The notes below the pieces were generated by a model. It did not search any database and was not told the DNA's origin. It was given only the letters and a program-made list of their open reading frames with translations. Positions 10,651 through 53,334 of a DNA stretch of 64,000 nt are shown here, in pieces. The stretch is from a virus. The translations under genes and the position numbers were made by a program. Position 1 is the stretch's first letter, and each line of letters opens with the position of its first letter. The stretch covers positions 6,615 through 70,614 of IMG/VR virus record IMGVR_UViG_3300010035_000001; one strand, written 5' to 3'.

Positions 10651-10881
10651 TCAGCTCCTATGCTGTAACGGAGCCGACTTCCCAAAGTGCCCCTTCACCC
10701 GGCGCCCATCCTTCAGAATGGCCTGCATTTCGTACTTGTGATGATGGGGCCCGCTGGTCATTTGACGACACCCTAACAACCCACACTCAGGGCAAACTGC
10801 GTCTTCGTTCCGTTCTGCCATTGGACGGATCAACTCGAATTCGCTCTGACAATTCCCACAGCTATATACGTACACTGGCAT
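10651..10881 (-). CDS. FmdB-family zinc ribbon protein
   Basis: MPVYVYSCGNCQSEFE...AVCPECG; GGAG SD. Confidence 0.85.
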   Translation of the reverse strand: MPVYVYSCGNCQSEFELIRPMAERNEDAVCPECGLLGCRQMTSGPHHHKYEMQAILKDGRRVKGHFGKSAPLQHRS

Positions 10882-11998
10882 GTTCCCGCTCCAAGTATGC
10901 ATCTTTCAAAACAGACATCAAACGTGGACCCAAACCAGGATCCTCTTCACACTTTTTGAACAACCCAGCCCAATTTTGGTATTTGATGATTTCGCCATCC
11001 ATGTCAATAGTACTCCAGCTACCATCTTTCACCCGAATACCATACTCGCCAAGGGAATTGTGAATATTCCAAACATTGTTGATCCCCTGACCGGTCACCA
11101 TCGCAATCTTCATTTCTCGAGGAGCATTCCCCAATTTGTTTTTCACAAGTTTCGCATTCAAAATGTGACCCATCAAACGCTTACCTGGACCCAATAATTG
11201 GCCACCCCAACTCAATCCCAAGCGCAACGTTGCCAGATGAGATAGGCCCTTTCCCCCGTAGGACGCACGATTCGAACCATAGCTGTTAAACGTTGTGTAT
11301 TGGTGGTTGCATATCACCACGGCCATATTGGTATTGCCTAGCAAGGCAGGAATCAAACGTCCCGCCTCTCTCATCACCTTGGCAGCAGCGCCGGGTTGAT
11401 TCGACGCGGCCAATCTATTAACAGATTCACCCTTTGTAGACGTGCCCCCCAAAGCATCAAACCCATAGATCACCGGGATCTCTGGATAGTTATTCCGCCA
11501 AAAATCAGCCGTATTGTAAATCGACTGCAAAATCCCCTCTAAATGCAATTCTTCCCGTTTAAACAACAAGTACTGCAATTGCGCTGGATCCACCCCCAAT
11601 CGTTGAGTGTAATGCTTGTCGCGGCCTCCCTCCGGCTCCGCAAGAACCACCACCCCACCAATCTTTTGAGCTGAGGCGAAAATGTGATCCAAAAATGTGG
11701 ATTTCCCCAAGTAAGGATCACCGTACACCTCTGTGACCCTCCCCCAAGGAATCCCCAAACCATTCATCATCAGATCCACACCAAGAGAACCAGTGGAGAA
11801 ATGCCCCGGCACATTCGCCAGGCAATCAGGTGCATCCAGAGACGTGACATTGACACCAGTCGTCTTCATCAAAGCCTGGTACTCGGCCAAAGGATCGCCC
11901 TTTTTGATCTTTGGTGTGTTTTTCGTCCCTTTAGATGCTTGTCTTCGAGACGACCCTTTGGCTTTTGTACCGGCTCCCTTTTTGGCTTTCGGAGCCAT
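10862..11998 (-). CDS. recA: RecA/UvsX-like recombinase
   Basis: STGSLGVDLMM.GLGIPWGRVTEVYG..GKST, YGFDALG, ICNHQ, SYGGKGLSHLATLRL, LVKNKLG. Confidence 0.93.
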   Translation of the reverse strand: MAPKAKKGAGTKAKGSSRRQASKGTKNTPKIKKGDPLAEYQALMKTTGVNVTSLDAPDCLANVPGHFSTGSLGVDLMMNGLGIPWGRVTEVYGDPYLGKSTFLDHIFASAQKIGGVVVLAEPEGGRDKHYTQRLGVDPAQLQYLLFKREELHLEGILQSIYNTADFWRNNYPEIPVIYGFDALGGTSTKGESVNRLAASNQPGAAAKVMREAGRLIPALLGNTNMAVVICNHQYTTFNSYGSNRASYGGKGLSHLATLRLGLSWGGQLLGPGKRLMGHILNAKLVKNKLGNAPREMKIAMVTGQGINNVWNIHNSLGEYGIRVKDGSWSTIDMDGEIIKYQNWAGLFKKCEEDPGLGPRLMSVLKDAYLEREHASVRI

Positions 11999-12003
11999 AC
12001 GGA

Positions 12004-13671
12004 TCACTTACCTCTGAGGCGTGCCTCAAGATTGGACATTTGTTGATCAACCGGATGTGTTCCAGGACCGGGCAAAACACCCGGTGGCGCAGACGGTAAC
12101 TGTGCTGGCTGTTGGCCCACACCACCGGGTGTCTGTTGGGGCACTTGAGGATGGGCTGCATGTGGCTGCTGAGGCATCATTGCCGGATTTGGTTGTCCAG
12201 GTTGTGGCGGTACCGCTGGATTCGATGGTTGTTGTGGTGGTTGCCCCTGTACCTGCGGTGCAGCTTGCTGAGGCGGTTGCTGCGGTGCCACTGGTACATT
12301 GCCAACTCCAGCCACAGACGGTTGTTGTCCCTGTTGTAACGCATACCCTGTGCCCAGATTAGACAGATTTGACCGGACGGGTGGAGGGGACACAGGGAGA
12401 CCAAATGGTTGTGGTGCCTGATGTACTGCCTGCTGTGGTGGAGTCTGGCTCATTGGTGACGCAGATGGAATCGCTGGTTGCTGACCCATTGATGCTACTG
12501 GCTGTGTGAACGGTTGCGCCATCGGTGGACTTGCCTGTTGAAACTGACCCGATAGTTGAGCCGGTGGTTGGGATGGTTGTTGGCCAACTGTCGGGAATGG
12601 ATTTGCCAATTGCCCTTGCGGAGCCATTGACTGAACTTGGGGACTTTGGACATTGATCGGACTCATGGAACCATTCGGTATCGGCAATCCATAACACTGG
12701 ATGGCCCGAACCATCTGTTCCTCCGTAGGCATTTGGCACTCTTGCTCCAAATCCCACATATGATTCAGCATAGGCATAAACTCTGGGGGTAACGGCATTG
12801 GATTATCATCAATCGCGCTGTACTTGATGTTCATTTTTTCAGGACCGGTCTTTTCACGGCTGATGCGAATCGGTCTCCCCTGTTGTGGATGAATCAACGC
12901 TGCAGCGCCCCCACGGGCATCAACAATCGTCCCAATGGCAGTGTGCAACATTCCAGGGGCCCCCAACAACAGCGGTCTGTAATACTGCTGTCCGGATTGA
13001 TCCTTGAACAAATGGGCCATGATGTTTTCCAGATACGCAATCTGATACAAAAATTGCGTCTGAACCCTGGCATTTTTGACACGCGGGGTCATTGCCGGAT
13101 CAGAGAGAGCCATGGTCTTTGCCTGACAAATCAAACAAAACTCAGGACCAGGACAACCAATCGACGCTCCCTGGGGCCGCTCCGGTGGCCTGAAAAAATG
13201 GGTCTTACTTTTGACAAAGTAGTTTTTTCCTTCCGCCCAAGAAGGCAACAAATAGATCACCGCTTGTGCTTTGTAACCGACCTGGACAGTGTCCCACTGC
13301 TTCTCGCCCTGCGGACCAAGAAATCGAAAGTAAATAGCTCTCGACGTATTGAAAGCCATTTGCTCAGCCTGTGCTGACTGATACGCCTGCTGAACAATAC
13401 TCTCATCCGGCATAAAAAACTGAGGCATCGGTTGCGCCCCATACACACCAGCTTGCGCCGGTGCTTGCACTGGGGGCTGTGCGTTGGGCTGTACTGGTTG
13501 TAATGGCATCGGTTGGCCATGGGGTACCATGGCCCCCGGTTGGGCTACCGGGGCTGGTATAACCTGTCCGGGAACACCTTGTTGCGGTGGTTGCTGGTAC
13601 CCAGGCTGCATCGGTGGTTGGCCTGGCTGAGGTGGCACCCCGGCTCCGTATTGGTTCGGATCAAATGTCAT
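12004..13671 (-). CDS. gp32-like single-stranded DNA-binding protein with long Pro/Gln-rich N- and C-terminal extensions
   Basis: core IYLLPS...THFF...CPGPEFCLICQ...FLYQI...HPQQGRPIRISREKTG...KYS matches the T4 gp32-type layout; lies between UvsY-like and RecA. Confidence 0.75.
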   Translation of the reverse strand: MTFDPNQYGAGVPPQPGQPPMQPGYQQPPQQGVPGQVIPAPVAQPGAMVPHGQPMPLQPVQPNAQPPVQAPAQAGVYGAQPMPQFFMPDESIVQQAYQSAQAEQMAFNTSRAIYFRFLGPQGEKQWDTVQVGYKAQAVIYLLPSWAEGKNYFVKSKTHFFRPPERPQGASIGCPGPEFCLICQAKTMALSDPAMTPRVKNARVQTQFLYQIAYLENIMAHLFKDQSGQQYYRPLLLGAPGMLHTAIGTIVDARGGAAALIHPQQGRPIRISREKTGPEKMNIKYSAIDDNPMPLPPEFMPMLNHMWDLEQECQMPTEEQMVRAIQCYGLPIPNGSMSPINVQSPQVQSMAPQGQLANPFPTVGQQPSQPPAQLSGQFQQASPPMAQPFTQPVASMGQQPAIPSASPMSQTPPQQAVHQAPQPFGLPVSPPPVRSNLSNLGTGYALQQGQQPSVAGVGNVPVAPQQPPQQAAPQVQGQPPQQPSNPAVPPQPGQPNPAMMPQQPHAAHPQVPQQTPGGVGQQPAQLPSAPPGVLPGPGTHPVDQQMSNLEARLRGK

Positions 13672-13729
13672 CTGTCTGTCTCCTCACTTTGTTAACACGC
13701 TCCAGCAACGATTTTTGGAACAAGAATTT

Positions 13730-14251
13730 TCAACCCGCTGCGTTTTGTTCGTAATCAACTCTTTTCCTTGGGATTATTGAAGCCTTTATTTTGAACCCCG
13801 TCATCACCATTTCACAACAACTGCAAGCTTCTTCTGCTTGTTCAATCAAACGCTGATGTTCCTGGTATCCAGGTTCCAAGCGCAACTGATTGTCCACCAT
13901 TTCCTTGGTTGGACGCTTCCAACCTTTCGGAGGATCCGCGGGTGGTTCGTAAAGACGCAAAGACACTTCCGCACGCCAGACCCGATAGTCCTTTTCTCGA
14001 ATCTGCCACACCCGGCGCATCAGAGCAGTCAATCGTCCCCAATTTGCCACCTGGCAAGGCAAGATAGCCTGATCCTCATGAACACGGTACTCTGGCATAC
14101 AAAGTTCGTTCATGATGTCCTGAACCGACACCGTGTACCAATTCAGAACCTGACCTTCACCATTGATCTGATCAATTTGCCAAGGTGGAATCGTCGAAAG
14201 CCGTTGCATAACCGCCTGCAATTTCTGTTCACCAGTTTCATGCGTATGCAT
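13730..14251 (-). CDS. UvsY-like recombination mediator (putative)
   Basis: helical; PTKEMVDNQLRLEPGYQEHQRLIEQAE...GFKIKASII pattern; between polymerase and SSB. Confidence 0.55.
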   Translation of the reverse strand: MHTHETGEQKLQAVMQRLSTIPPWQIDQINGEGQVLNWYTVSVQDIMNELCMPEYRVHEDQAILPCQVANWGRLTALMRRVWQIREKDYRVWRAEVSLRLYEPPADPPKGWKRPTKEMVDNQLRLEPGYQEHQRLIEQAEEACSCCEMVMTGFKIKASIIPRKRVDYEQNAAG

Positions 14252-14252
14252 A

Positions 14253-16244
14253 TTAAGCCGCCTTTTTGTCTGCCCACGAAGTAACGCTCCATTCGGCATC
14301 TACTTCGATAGTAATTGGTTGAAATTCTTGGTAATTCTCCATCTCGTACTTGATGATCCGGCTGACTTCCTGCAATTCGTCAAATGGAACGTCAAACTGG
14401 ATCTCATCGTGTACCGTGGCCACAATCTTTGTTTCCATTTTGCGGGCACGGATGGCCAACCAAATCCTCACCATGGATTCCTTTGTCAACTCCGCAGCCG
14501 TCCCTTGAATAAGGGTCGAAATGGCCATCCGCTCACCCCGACCACGCAGCTTAAGATCCATTGAACAGATCTCTGGAACGCGCCGCGGTCGGCCGAACAG
14601 ATTTTGAAAATTCCCCTTCTGTGAACGAACATAATTCCAGAAATTGACCCGAAAAGCCGCGAACCCCGAATATCGATCCATGAAGATTCCAAGGTACTCT
14701 CGCGCTTTATCCACCTCAACTTTTGCCAATTCTGAAAAGGTCCATTCCGTCATGCCATACGACAAACCAAAATTGATGATCTTGGCGTACTTCCGGATCT
14801 CCTTGTCCGTAGTACCAAACACTTCCATTGCAGTCCTGTCATGTAGATCCTGACCCTCCACATAAGCTTCAACCATAATCGGATCTTTGGAGTAAAACGC
14901 AATGACCCTCAATTCAATCTGAGAATAGTCCCAAAACATCCGGACGATTTCAGGACCCCCAACAATAAAAGCACGCCGGATACTCCAGGGATCGATCCCC
15001 CCATCTTTCAACTTTTTCCCAGAATACTTTTCCGCCCGATCGCTATCGTCCTGGGGTTGATTCTGAAAGTTGGGCCGCTGGCAACTTAACCGGCCCGTAT
15101 CTGTCCCTACCTGCTGATAGTCCGGATGCACACGATTCTGCTTATCCAACCTACTCAAAATCGTGTCGGTATAGGTCCCCTGGAGCTTGTCTGCAGTCCG
15201 CCATTCTATGATCAACTCCAACACAGGGAATCGATCCTTAAACGAAGACAATACTTTCTGATCAACAGCAAATGCATTCGGATGCCACAGATTCTTTTTC
15301 CTGGCCGTCTTCGTTCTTTTGGTGAGCTTGCAGCCCCAACTGTAAAGCATCTGCCGAAGTTCATCATCCGAATTAGGATTTACATACCGACCGATCATCG
15401 CCGTGATCTGCTCAATCAACACATCTTTGCGCTGACCCAGGGTTTCTTTCAATTCTTCCAGATACCCAACATCCACCAACATCCCGGTTTCTTCCATCTC
15501 AACGACAGCTTCCACCAGAGCCATTTCTGTTTTCCAGATTCTAGGATACTGTTTCGAAATCCCATTTCCCGCTTCATAGAGGGCGTAAAGACCGGTCGTG
15601 AACTCCACATCAAAACAACCATAAGTCCCAACCAAAGGAATATTCACCTGGGAATACCCATGGTCCTTCATATAGGCCTTTTTCCCCATATTCTGAGATT
15701 TGGCCAACCGCTCTACTTCCGATACAACCTTCCCCTCAAAATGAGAAGCGTCCATCCGGCCCAAATCCGTCTCAGATCGATACTTCAGGGCCGTTGAACG
15801 ATTCTCATCGTACAACTGCGCAGCGATCATCGTGTCATAAAACGGACCCACCGGATTCATCCCATCTTTATGGGCAAAATGAAGTTCAAACTTCAGATTG
15901 TGCGCCACCTTCATCGTGTTAGGTTTTTCCAACAGATACTTGAAACCCGGTTGAACCATGTCAAACGACAACTGTTGCACCCCAGGGGCATGATGCCGAT
16001 AGGGAACATAGAAATTATGAAGTTCTCCCACTTGGGGATCCCATCCAGCAAAACCCAACCCACAAGACTCAGACTGTTGAAACCATCGTGTCCCCGAAGT
16101 TTCATAATCAAACGTCAAAACCGGTGTTCGATCCAAAAAATTGATCATGGTCTGAAAATCATCTGCATTCATCACCAGGTGCTTGTCTGGATACCCTGTT
16201 TCATACTTCAGCCAAGGATCAATCTGAAGGGGTGCCCGCATCAT
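14253..16244 (-). CDS. polA: family A DNA polymerase with 3'-5' exonuclease
   Basis: FDYETSG, AHNLKFE, YGCFDV exonuclease motifs; DYSQIELRV, RKYAKIINFGLSYG, VHDEI polymerase motifs; ATGA overlap start. Confidence 0.96.
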   Translation of the reverse strand: MMRAPLQIDPWLKYETGYPDKHLVMNADDFQTMINFLDRTPVLTFDYETSGTRWFQQSESCGLGFAGWDPQVGELHNFYVPYRHHAPGVQQLSFDMVQPGFKYLLEKPNTMKVAHNLKFELHFAHKDGMNPVGPFYDTMIAAQLYDENRSTALKYRSETDLGRMDASHFEGKVVSEVERLAKSQNMGKKAYMKDHGYSQVNIPLVGTYGCFDVEFTTGLYALYEAGNGISKQYPRIWKTEMALVEAVVEMEETGMLVDVGYLEELKETLGQRKDVLIEQITAMIGRYVNPNSDDELRQMLYSWGCKLTKRTKTARKKNLWHPNAFAVDQKVLSSFKDRFPVLELIIEWRTADKLQGTYTDTILSRLDKQNRVHPDYQQVGTDTGRLSCQRPNFQNQPQDDSDRAEKYSGKKLKDGGIDPWSIRRAFIVGGPEIVRMFWDYSQIELRVIAFYSKDPIMVEAYVEGQDLHDRTAMEVFGTTDKEIRKYAKIINFGLSYGMTEWTFSELAKVEVDKAREYLGIFMDRYSGFAAFRVNFWNYVRSQKGNFQNLFGRPRRVPEICSMDLKLRGRGERMAISTLIQGTAAELTKESMVRIWLAIRARKMETKIVATVHDEIQFDVPFDELQEVSRIIKYEMENYQEFQPITIEVDAEWSVTSWADKKAA

Positions 16245-52773: not shown

Positions 52774-53334
52774 TTACTGACCTGGATACATCGCTTTCGT
52801 GATGGCATCCATCAGATCGGATTTGTTCATATTGCCTGTCTTAACGCCGTAGGCTTTGGCCATGGCTACCAGGTAATTCTTGGGCATGGATTCCTGGGGA
52901 TCCGGCCAATCTTCGCCTTCAGCAGGAATCATCCATTTCCCATCATTCCCATTTGCCTTTGGGGCTGCTGGTTCCGCTACGGGCTCGGGTTTTGCCGCGG
53001 GCTCGGGGGCTGGATCCGGTTCCACCTGGGCTTCGATCACGGGTTCAGGCTTGGCCGGAGAATCCGGTTGAATCGGTTCCGGAATTGGCGTTTTAGGTTC
53101 GGGGATCGGCTCGGGTTGTGGAATTGCCACAGGTTGAGCAACAGCAACCGCAGCTTCAACCACTGGCACCTTGGGCATATCCTCAACCACTTTCCATTCA
53201 TCCATCATCGACAGCATTTCGAAATCGCTCAGATCATCAACATCCAGGAAACCATTGACGTCAATCTGATACAGCTTTCCGTTGACGTTCAGTTGTTGGC
53301 CGTGCATAGGGCGTCTTTTGTTTAAGAGTCTCAT
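52774..53334 (-). CDS. protein with Pro/Glu-rich linker and C-terminal Rho-N/HeH-like helical domain
   Basis: PEPIPEPK...PEPAAKPEP linker; KNYLVAMAKAYGVKTGNMNKSDLMDAI. Confidence 0.7.
   Translation of the reverse strand: MRLLNKRRPMHGQQLNVNGKLYQIDVNGFLDVDDLSDFEMLSMMDEWKVVEDMPKVPVVEAAVAVAQPVAIPQPEPIPEPKTPIPEPIQPDSPAKPEPVIEAQVEPDPAPEPAAKPEPVAEPAAPKANGNDGKWMIPAEGEDWPDPQESMPKNYLVAMAKAYGVKTGNMNKSDLMDAITKAMYPGQ

Follow-up and report, generated by a model that had tools for sequence, protein, structure and literature searches.

What do two long tails rich in proline and glutamine (P/Q) do on a phage SSB? The question is raised by a gene of an uncultured phage (110 kb), found at 12004..13671 on the minus strand of the 64,000-nucleotide stretch of DNA analysed here (the window). 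All features described below lie on the minus strand. As supported by its ORF and by orthologues, the gene encodes a protein of 555 aa, predicted to be a gp32-type SSB, in which a folded core is flanked on both sides by P/Q-rich tails. The ORF begins with ATG and its product ends in MSNLEARLRGK. A Shine-Dalgarno sequence, GAGGAG, is located 8 nt 5' of the ATG (13680..13685) and, together with the P/Q N-tails found in homologues, supports translation of the long N-terminal tail. Orthologues share 34-48% identity in the core.

The folded core and its putative zinc site

The core spans residues 110-333 (12673..13344) and was assigned to the gp32-type OB fold based on AF2, Foldseek, VIA and a family profile. 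The AF2 model of the core has a pLDDT of 93.2 and a pTM of 0.84. When this model was compared with the PDB in Foldseek, the top six matches were T4 and RB69 gp32 (E 6e-9 to 3e-6; TM 0.58-0.68), and the first non-gp32 match followed at E 0.045. VIA gave Z scores of 14.6 for RB69 gp32 and 14.2 for T4 gp32 over 191-192 aa (rmsd 3.5-3.6 A), the next fold being that of PRD1 P12 (Z 4.5). The predicted fold is therefore that of gp32 and, unlike in bacterial SSB, not the tetrameric PF00436 OB fold, since bacterial SSB chains reached Z 3.0 or less (2.6-3.0). Annotated phage SSBs were also among the top matches in a BFVD structure search with the core.

At the level of sequence the link to gp32 is weak, and the assignment depends mainly on the predicted structure. 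Identity to T4 and RB69 gp32 is 12-15%. Pfam scans of the protein produced no match at E<=1, neither to PF08804 nor to PF00436, and an NCBIfam scan produced no match either. When 10 relatives were scanned with the Pfam gp32 model, P0093 alone gave a match (E 0.1; 13 bits, the cut-off being 26.8). PHROG 1192, labelled 'SSB', gave one weak match to the protein (E 0.0028). As a single sequence, the core found nothing meaningful among PDB sequences; gp32 was reached only by the family profile (E 3.5e-4 to 8e-4), with the H and CxxC columns aligned.

These columns belong to a putative zinc-binding segment, residues 158-182 (13126..13200), which was recognised by its conservation. The candidate ligands H158, C173, C179 and C182 are kept in 99, 92, 96 and 92 of 111 family members, respectively (83-89%), while C312 and C326 are not conserved in the family. 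The spacing of the four residues is H-x14-C-x5-C-x2-C, compared with H-x12-C-x9-C-x2-C in RB69 gp32, and the profile alignment places the H and C-x2-C columns of the family on those of RB69 gp32. From this conservation, the core may well bind zinc. An earlier note, made from the letters of the window, had described the core as gp32-like with His/Cys zinc ligands. Foldseek and VIA, on the strength of a predicted structure, and the family profile all point to gp32, and four conserved residues now stand as candidates for the ligands.

Overall, the protein resembles gp32 of T4 and RB69 (PDB 1GPC, 2A1K and 8GME; PF08804) in its predicted core fold, shared over about 191 residues, in the putative His and Cys3 pattern, and in its three-part layout of N-terminal element, core and disordered C-terminal tail. 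The protein would be expected to coat ssDNA.

Composition and conserved elements of the tails

The N-terminal tail, residues 1-82 (13426..13671), is composed of 27% P, 21% Q, 12% G and 11% A (48% P+Q), and contains a single acidic residue and no Lys or Arg. The C-terminal tail, residues 334-540 (12052..12672), is nearly uncharged and about 44% P+Q; from residue 336 to the end of the protein at 555, P accounts for 23%, Q for 21%, A for 10% and G for 9%, with two acidic and four basic residues. Both tails are predicted to be disordered, with no secondary structure and pLDDT values of 39-53 in the N-tail and 41-54 in the C-tail. In the window's remaining long ORFs on the minus strand, 59 in number, P+Q makes up 9.2%, and no comparable P/Q tract was found on any other ORF of the window. 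DNA-level tandem repeats were considered as the origin of the tails and were ruled out by a repeat check of the DNA.

Composition and predicted disorder agree with the earlier description of a core flanked by tails dominated by P, Q, A and G. This overall division into core and tails was retained, and only its exact boundaries were shifted slightly, to an N-tail at residues 1-82, a pre-core helix region at 83-109, the core at 110-333, a C-tail at 334-540 and a terminal helix at 543-552.

The pre-core segment (13345..13425) is conserved, with the motif P-x-[YF]-x-x-P-D-[ED]...A-Y-Q and a predicted helix at residues 90-99. It is acidic to neutral and occupies the position of the basic cooperativity domain of T4 gp32; the VIA alignment starts at residue 28 of the model, which corresponds to gp32 residue 27. 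Unlike gp32, the phage protein is therefore without a basic N-terminal cooperativity domain and has an 82-aa uncharged P/Q tail and an acidic or neutral helix instead.

Within the tails, an alignment of 47 members shows conservation to be highest in three short islands and in an amphipathic helix at the C-terminus. The first island, N-P-[YF] at residues 357-359 (12595..12603), has N in 29, P in 44 and Y in 41 of these members. The second and third, P-P-P-V-x-S (residues 429-434) and Y-x-P-Q-P (residues 443-447; Y-A-L-Q-Q in this phage), are also recognised by conservation (12331..12387) and together contain the longest proline-free stretch of the C-tail. The C-terminal tip, residues 541-555 (12007..12051), follows the pattern hydrophobic-x-x-L-[QE]-x-x-[LIM]-x-G, and its helix is predicted at residues 543-552. 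The family consensus is L-x-x-L-Q-x-x-L-x-G, with L at position 545 in 43 members, L548 in 46, Q549 in 39, L, I or M at 552 in 44, and G554 in 43. In the present protein these positions are M545, L548, E549, L552 and G554 (MSNLEARLRG). The last 11 residues carry a net charge of +2, which confirms the non-acidic tip noticed earlier. Unlike gp32, which has an acidic CTD of roughly 50 aa, the phage protein thus has about 215 uncharged P/Q residues with a slightly basic amphipathic helix at their end. The tip motif is absent from the remaining ORFs of the window and of five related loci.

The wider family and the gene neighbourhood

The family comprises at least 150 metagenomic cluster representatives. 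In 122 full-core homologues, the N-terminal flank is at least 30 aa long in 104 and the C-terminal flank at least 60 aa long in 116, with medians of 76 and 158 aa and P+Q fractions of 0.47 and 0.44, respectively. The tails are thus retained in nearly all of these homologues, and long P/Q tails are a family trait. Of the three outcomes that the earlier note named as refuting its reading, two were looked for and neither occurred, since the core is gp32/OB-like and homologues keep their tails. Short-tailed members, for example P0040, keep the tip.

In some clades the tip of bacterial SSB, D-D-I-P-F, replaces or supplements the helix tip. The well-supported members P0122, P0131 and P0099 end in D-D-D-I-P-F or E-D-D-I-P-F and keep the zinc ligand residues, which gives the family an SSB signature of independent origin from the fold evidence. 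The classes of tip in the family are the helix, a neutral G-x-P-F, the acidic D-D-I-P-F and a 4-Cys module. Mapped on the core tree, PF-type tips correspond to at least 12 changes. For the D-D-I-P-F clade, one 2.5-kb metagenome fragment was found and no locus in viral or genome contigs. A tblastn search with the whole protein found no relative among 50,697 deposited phage records, and PolA of this phage shares no more than 30% identity with any deposited phage; hence there is no cultured relative for comparison. These results define a sizeable family of phage SSBs which has so far been unannotated, being outside Pfam and NCBIfam and absent from deposited phages.

The downstream neighbour of the SSB gene (10862..12007) encodes a UvsX/RecA-like recombinase (Pfam RecA 1.6e-21; phrog_97 UvsX-like 2.4e-43). 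The recombinase gene starts with a GTG that overlaps the stop codon of the SSB gene, and an ATG is present 9 nt further on. A UvsX-like gene is found beside the SSB gene in all five related viral contigs. Upstream lies the gene for a conserved 189-aa protein (13730..14299), which keeps its place beside the SSB gene in six out of six related loci. Based on the ESM Atlas (feature score 0.95; TM 0.72 and 0.81 to clusters with 15-42% PF11056 members), this protein is a possible UvsY-like mediator, which is treated here as a lead only; neither Pfam scans nor a six-sequence profile against PDB sequences confirmed a UvsY identity. The whole module, in the order PolA, 189-aa protein, SSB, UvsX-like, SbcD, SbcC, is kept in five related viral contigs (17-109 kb), and its PolA, 189-aa protein, SSB part is also kept in a distant clade. 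Proteins of the module also include a DnaB-like helicase, a primase and an SF2 helicase. In having a UvsX-type recombinase, and possibly a UvsY, the module is a further likeness to T4 and RB69.

Tip class and gene content did not correlate in the few loci available, which were helix-tipped, PF-tipped, or, in one case, fetched by the D-D-I-P-F-clade profile, the tip of this last locus itself not being seen. The order PolA, 189-aa protein, SSB was present in all. As gene order is equal across tip classes, the neighbourhood points to no partner.

Possible roles of the tails

The findings are best explained, with fair probability, by a phage SSB on a gp32 scaffold that is built like a bacterial SSB, from a core, disordered linker tethers and docking peptides. 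The T4-gp32-type OB-fold core, with its putative His/Cys3 zinc site, would coat ssDNA in replication and UvsX-type recombination. The disordered, uncharged P/Q tails would be long flexible tethers bearing short docking peptides, namely the three islands (N-P-Y/F, P-P-P-V-x-S and Y-x-P-Q-P) and, above all, the C-terminal amphipathic helix, which would bring a partner protein to DNA coated with the SSB. The presence of conserved islands and a helix, together with a tip that has been exchanged for or supplemented with D-D-I-P-F, fits the pattern of a tether plus docking peptide. The partner of the tip is probably a neighbouring replication or recombination protein, such as the UvsX-like recombinase, the possible UvsY-like protein, PolA, a DnaB-like helicase or a primase.

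Such an arrangement would have two parallels. One is the acidic tail of T4 gp32, whose CTD is disordered and binds partners, and whose NTD mediates cooperativity (PMC12424635). The other is the IDL and D-D-D-I-P-F tip of bacterial SSB, where IDL and CTP recruit many partners (PMC7584906, PMC10164576). Like E. coli SSB, the phage protein consists of a DNA-binding core, a disordered linker of biased composition and a short conserved C-terminal docking peptide, and the logic is probably alike; some members of the family bear the D-D-I-P-F tip itself. Unlike in E. coli SSB, however, the linker has about four times the length and there is a second tail at the N-terminus, and in place of DDDIPF the tip is a non-acidic helix which ends ...LEARLRGK. 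A tether role alone leaves the 82-aa N-terminal tail unexplained, as well as the great length of the tether (about 215 aa, where E. coli SSB has about 55 aa).

Both the function of the core and the principle of tether plus tip are already established, and nothing known is overturned. What the family adds is the union of a gp32 core with a linker and docking tip in the style of bacterial SSB and, within one family, the natural interchange of a novel helical tip with a host-type D-D-I-P-F tip. It thereby offers a natural test set for partner choice by SSB tails and for the role of linker length and composition. Reagents for isothermal amplification include gp32-type SSBs, and variants that bear other tails could differ in their properties.

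A tethering role is compatible with a second one, as the one does not exclude the other: the P/Q tails could give a monomeric gp32-type SSB multivalency, with a liquid replication/recombination compartment concentrating UvsX, PolA and other clients. As an explanation this condensate scaffold, which the earlier note had proposed, was considered rather unlikely, although condensation by the tails is plausible by analogy. In vitro, E. coli SSB phase-separates, and its LLPS requires the Gln/Gly/Pro-rich IDL (PMC7584906); T4 gp32 and UvsX condense in PEG-containing buffer (PMC11951158). In the phage family, the uncharged low-complexity P/Q tails that flank the core are conserved in kind at either end, and the Tyr/Phe-containing islands could serve as stickers. 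However, aromatic stickers are sparse (four in the N-tail and five in the C-tail), charges are nearly absent, and proline richness favours expanded chains. Moreover, conservation is concentrated in discrete motifs and the tip and not in bulk composition alone, and the family includes short-tailed members. In E. coli SSB multivalency derives from tetramerisation, whereas no oligomerisation element is evident in the phage SSB. A more elaborate proposal, in which the P/Q arms would substitute for the multivalency of tetramerisation and SSB-coated ssDNA would nucleate a liquid replication/recombination compartment, is held to be a shade less probable. As clients, the helix would then choose partners from the phage, while the borrowed D-D-I-P-F tip of some clades would choose host SSB-interacting proteins. 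The phage SSB is a candidate for asking if P/Q tails let a monomeric SSB phase-separate.

It is doubtful that the P/Q arms only tune ssDNA binding (through spacing, cooperativity or kinetic gating of the cleft), with the terminal helix folding onto its own core and no partner being recruited. Regulation of this kind would not be without precedent, since the CTD of T4 gp32 is able to enter the binding cleft and governs how filaments form and come apart (PMC12424635), and in E. coli SSB the OB fold is a further binding site for the protein's own tip (PMC7584906). Conservation of the pre-core helix region (83-109), at the site of the gp32 cooperativity domain, would be in line with it. However, the motif which replaces or supplements the tip in some clades, D-D-I-P-F, binds host proteins and argues for recruitment in trans; being uncharged, the tails also cannot mimic DNA electrostatically in the way of the acidic gp32 CTD.

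That the gp32 fold was recruited elsewhere, for example as a specialised factor in repair or a regulator that binds RNA, or that the long ORF is an artefact of annotation or assembly, would be in keeping with the remoteness of the sequence similarity to characterised gp32, but is very improbable: the ORF is continuous and preceded by a strong SD, the architecture is common to five viral contigs and at least 150 cluster representatives, and the gene takes the place of an SSB gene, with polymerase on one side and recombinase on the other and with no other SSB candidate among the annotated module genes. Least credible is a prion-like SSB, as the earlier note had it, or an amyloid-forming one, whose Q-rich tails would switch to a self-templating aggregate, because despite about 21% Gln, few charges, low complexity and a PLAAC flag on the E. 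coli SSB IDL (PMC7584906), the tails are broken up about every four residues by proline (23-27%; proline-free runs reach 9 aa in the N-terminal tail and 19 aa in the C-terminal one), have no Q/N run longer than 2 and scarce Asn, and so lack the Q/N-rich, proline-poor tract of yeast-type Q/N prion domains, which makes a classical Q/N prion domain unlikely.

The tail columns of the family profile also match the P/Q region of E. coli ZipA (E 3e-4), a likeness that is compositional and not one of homology. Unlike the phage SSB, ZipA tethers FtsZ to the membrane, and its P/Q domain was reportedly described by Ohashi and co-workers in 2002 as an unstructured flexible tether.

[quoted passage not shown]

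The SSB is encoded on the minus strand (12004-13671) by a real ORF of 555 codons, which has an ATG start and a GAGGAG Shine-Dalgarno sequence 8 nt upstream of it. Its two ends are strongly biased in composition: residues 1-82 contain 27% Pro, 21% Gln and one charged residue, and residues 336-555 contain 23% Pro, 21% Gln and six charged residues. Across the remaining long minus-strand ORFs of the window P+Q amounts to 9.2%, and no tract comparable to the SSB tails was found in them. Translation confirmed the C-terminal sequence MSNLEARLRGK given in the earlier note. At the DNA level, the tails do not consist of tandem repeats. Over positions 12001-14000 the GC skew is reversed (+0.02 versus about -0.2 in adjoining regions) and GC reaches 0.53; the probable cause of the reversal is the wealth of CCN/CAR codons in the tails, not a replication signal. 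The window's only other strongly proline-rich tract is a central linker of about 90 aa with P-E-P-type repeats in a 186-aa ORF of the head-module region (52774-53334, minus strand). This linker is Pro/Glu/Ala-rich, hence acidic and not P/Q-rich, and the ORF is overlapped by a plus-strand ORF of similar length.

The SSB had no match in Pfam at E<=1 and none in NCBIfam; PHROG 1192 ('single strand DNA binding protein') matched residues 137-324 with an E-value of 0.0028. An exhaustive phmmer search of 1.84 billion cluster representatives with the core retrieved at least 150 relatives, of which 59 had an E-value of 1e-30 or lower. A profile built from 111 relatives matched the sequences of the RB69 and T4 gp32 crystal structures (E 3.5e-4 to 8e-4), with the His and Cys-x2-Cys columns of the family lining up with those of gp32. 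All structural statements on the window protein rest on predicted models. With the 111-relative alignment as input, AlphaFold2 modelled residues 83-340 at a pLDDT of 93.2 and a pTM of 0.84. The top six Foldseek matches of this model in the PDB were gp32 entries (1GPC, 2A1K, 8GME, 2ATQ; E 6e-9 to 3e-6, TM up to 0.68), followed by a first other match at E 0.045; 8GME is the gp32-Dda-dT17 complex. VIA-align gave Z-scores of 14.6 for RB69 gp32 and 14.2 for T4 gp32 over 191-192 residues (rmsd 3.5-3.6 Å), the top non-gp32 fold being PRD1 SSB P12 at 4.5. A comparison with predicted viral structures gave 75 matches to the core (E<=1e-3), and annotated phage SSBs were numerous among the top matches listed. 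The candidate zinc ligands follow the pattern H-x14-C-x5-C-x2-C and are conserved among the 111 members (H158 in 99, C173 in 92, C179 in 96 and C182 in 92); C312 and C326 are not conserved in that alignment.

The gp32-like core that had been proposed from the sequence was thus borne out by the AlphaFold2 model, by Foldseek and VIA-align, and by the family profile. Based on fold matches, profile alignment and conserved ligands, the modelled core is a remote gp32 homologue with a zinc-ligand set, and we infer that it binds zinc and ssDNA. Fold and ligands place the protein in the gp32 superfamily, but unlike the T4 gp32 family it has no Pfam-model match, basic N-domain or acidic C-domain. It resembles bacterial SSB in tail design, although it is not a PF00436 protein. 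The family is real, conserved and unannotated. Its core function is ordinary, and its novelty lies in an unusual architecture with two uncharged tails, and in a new terminal motif. No description of P/Q-tailed gp32-type SSBs was found in the limited literature searched, an absence that is not proof.

Tails, conserved islands and C-terminal tips

In the full-length AlphaFold2 model, residues 1-80 and 335-540 have a pLDDT of 39-54 and no secondary structure; the core is confident, and short helices were predicted at 90-99 and 543-552. The tails are predicted to be disordered and, judging by the relatives, are a family trait. In 122 relatives spanning the entire core, the N flank has a median length of 76 aa and the C flank of 158 aa (IQR 115-198), with a median P+Q of 0.47 and 0.44, respectively, and few charges. 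The same two-tailed architecture was found in five related IMG/VR loci, so that a check for tail loss in close homologues found the tails kept. A few relatives, such as P0040, have short tails (35-45 aa) and still keep the terminal motif. Moreover, 42 of the 122 members (among the cluster representatives P0002-P0112) carry a four-Cys module, C-F-G-x8-C-x2-C-P-x-W-I-K-x-Q-C, within the disordered C-tail immediately ahead of the terminal helix. The module, possibly a second, small zinc knuckle, is absent from the window SSB and its sister P0006.

Conservation was scored across 47 aligned members of the helix-tipped group, whose tails are largely unalignable outside discrete islands. These are N-P-[YF] at residues 357-359 (N 29/47, P 44/47, Y 41/47), P-P-P-V-x-S at 429-434 and Y-x-P-Q-P at 443-447 (Y 40/47). 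The C-terminal motif comprises L545 (43/47), L548 (46/47), Q549 (39/47), L/I/M552 (44/47) and G554 (43/47), and one face of the predicted terminal helix bears hydrophobic positions i, i+3 and i+7. A pre-core segment is also conserved (P83, P88-D89-[ED]90, Y97-Q98). It is not basic, and in the model it takes the place of the N-terminal domain of gp32, as the structural alignment begins at gp32 residue 27.

The helix-Gly motif occurs across most of the core tree and is probably the ancestral tip. Neutral G-x-x-P-F ends prevail in one well-supported 19-member clade. Other members, including P0122, P0131 and P0099, which keep all four zinc ligands, end in D-D-I-P-F or E-D-D-I-P-F, the canonical bacterial SSB C-terminal peptide; such acidic-tipped members often also have the helix motif just upstream. 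At least 12 changes of PF-type ends were counted on the FastTree core phylogeny, a count that is approximate because the tree is quick, with many weakly supported forks and a root for drawing only. The presence of the bacterial SSB docking peptide on proteins with a gp32 fold is independent support for an SSB role of the family and for the tail end as a docking site. The SSB tip motif was found on no other ORF of the window or the five related loci, and gene content did not vary with tip class in the few loci compared.

Possible roles of the tails

In T4 gp32, a basic N-terminal domain provides cooperativity, the core domain binds DNA, and a disordered, acidic C-terminal domain is the binding site for other proteins of replication and recombination (PMC12424635). 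Bacterial SSB recruits many partners via a disordered linker, variable in length and composition, and a conserved C-terminal peptide (PMC7584906, PMC10164576). By analogy, the window SSB is best read as a gp32 scaffold whose tails follow this logic: the core would coat ssDNA, the long uncharged P/Q chains would act as flexible tethers, and the conserved islands and terminal helix would dock partner proteins. Condensate formation is plausible on similar grounds and compatible with such tethering and docking, given that phase separation of E. coli SSB needs its Gln/Gly/Pro-rich linker (PMC7584906) and that droplets of T4 gp32 form in PEG buffer (PMC11951158); its outcome is, however, hard to predict because aromatic and charged residues are sparse in the tails. 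The prion-like character suggested in the earlier note, a Q/N-type switch, is unlikely from the tail sequence, in which Pro occurs about every four residues, no Q/N run exceeds two, and the longest proline-free run (19 aa) coincides with a conserved island.

The replication and recombination module

The SSB gene lies within a replication/recombination module encoded entirely on the minus strand. Along the strand, the order is SF2-type helicase, DnaB-like helicase, primase, PolA, a 189-aa protein, SSB, UvsX/RecA-like recombinase, an 83-aa zinc-ribbon protein, SbcD, SbcC and a RuvC-like resolvase. The order of PolA, 189-aa protein, SSB, UvsX-like protein, SbcD and SbcC is kept in five related viral contigs (17-109 kb), and that of the first three also in a distant metagenomic fragment.

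The 189-aa protein (13730-14299, minus strand), between PolA and SSB, is syntenic in 6/6 related loci. Neither Pfam nor a six-sequence profile against PDB sequences gave a match; in the ESM Atlas it adjoins clusters partly carrying PF11056 (UvsY), with a feature score of 0.95 and TM of 0.72/0.81. It may be a distant UvsY-type mediator of recombination, and it is a candidate for the protein that the SSB tip would dock. If it is UvsY-type, the T4-style presynaptic trio of UvsY, gp32 and UvsX would stand in a row.

The recombinase gene (10862-12007, minus strand) starts with a GTG that shares bases with the stop codon of the SSB gene (GTGA), with an ATG 9 nt downstream, an arrangement that suggests translational coupling. 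The 83-aa FmdB-like zinc-ribbon protein (10651-10902, minus strand), encoded between the genes for the recombinase and SbcD, is conserved in four related viral contigs; in the fifth, L003, it was not detected. At its N terminus the recombinase itself has a Lys/Arg-rich extension (about 25-40 aa), which is present in 5/5 orthologues from the related contigs (L001-L005).
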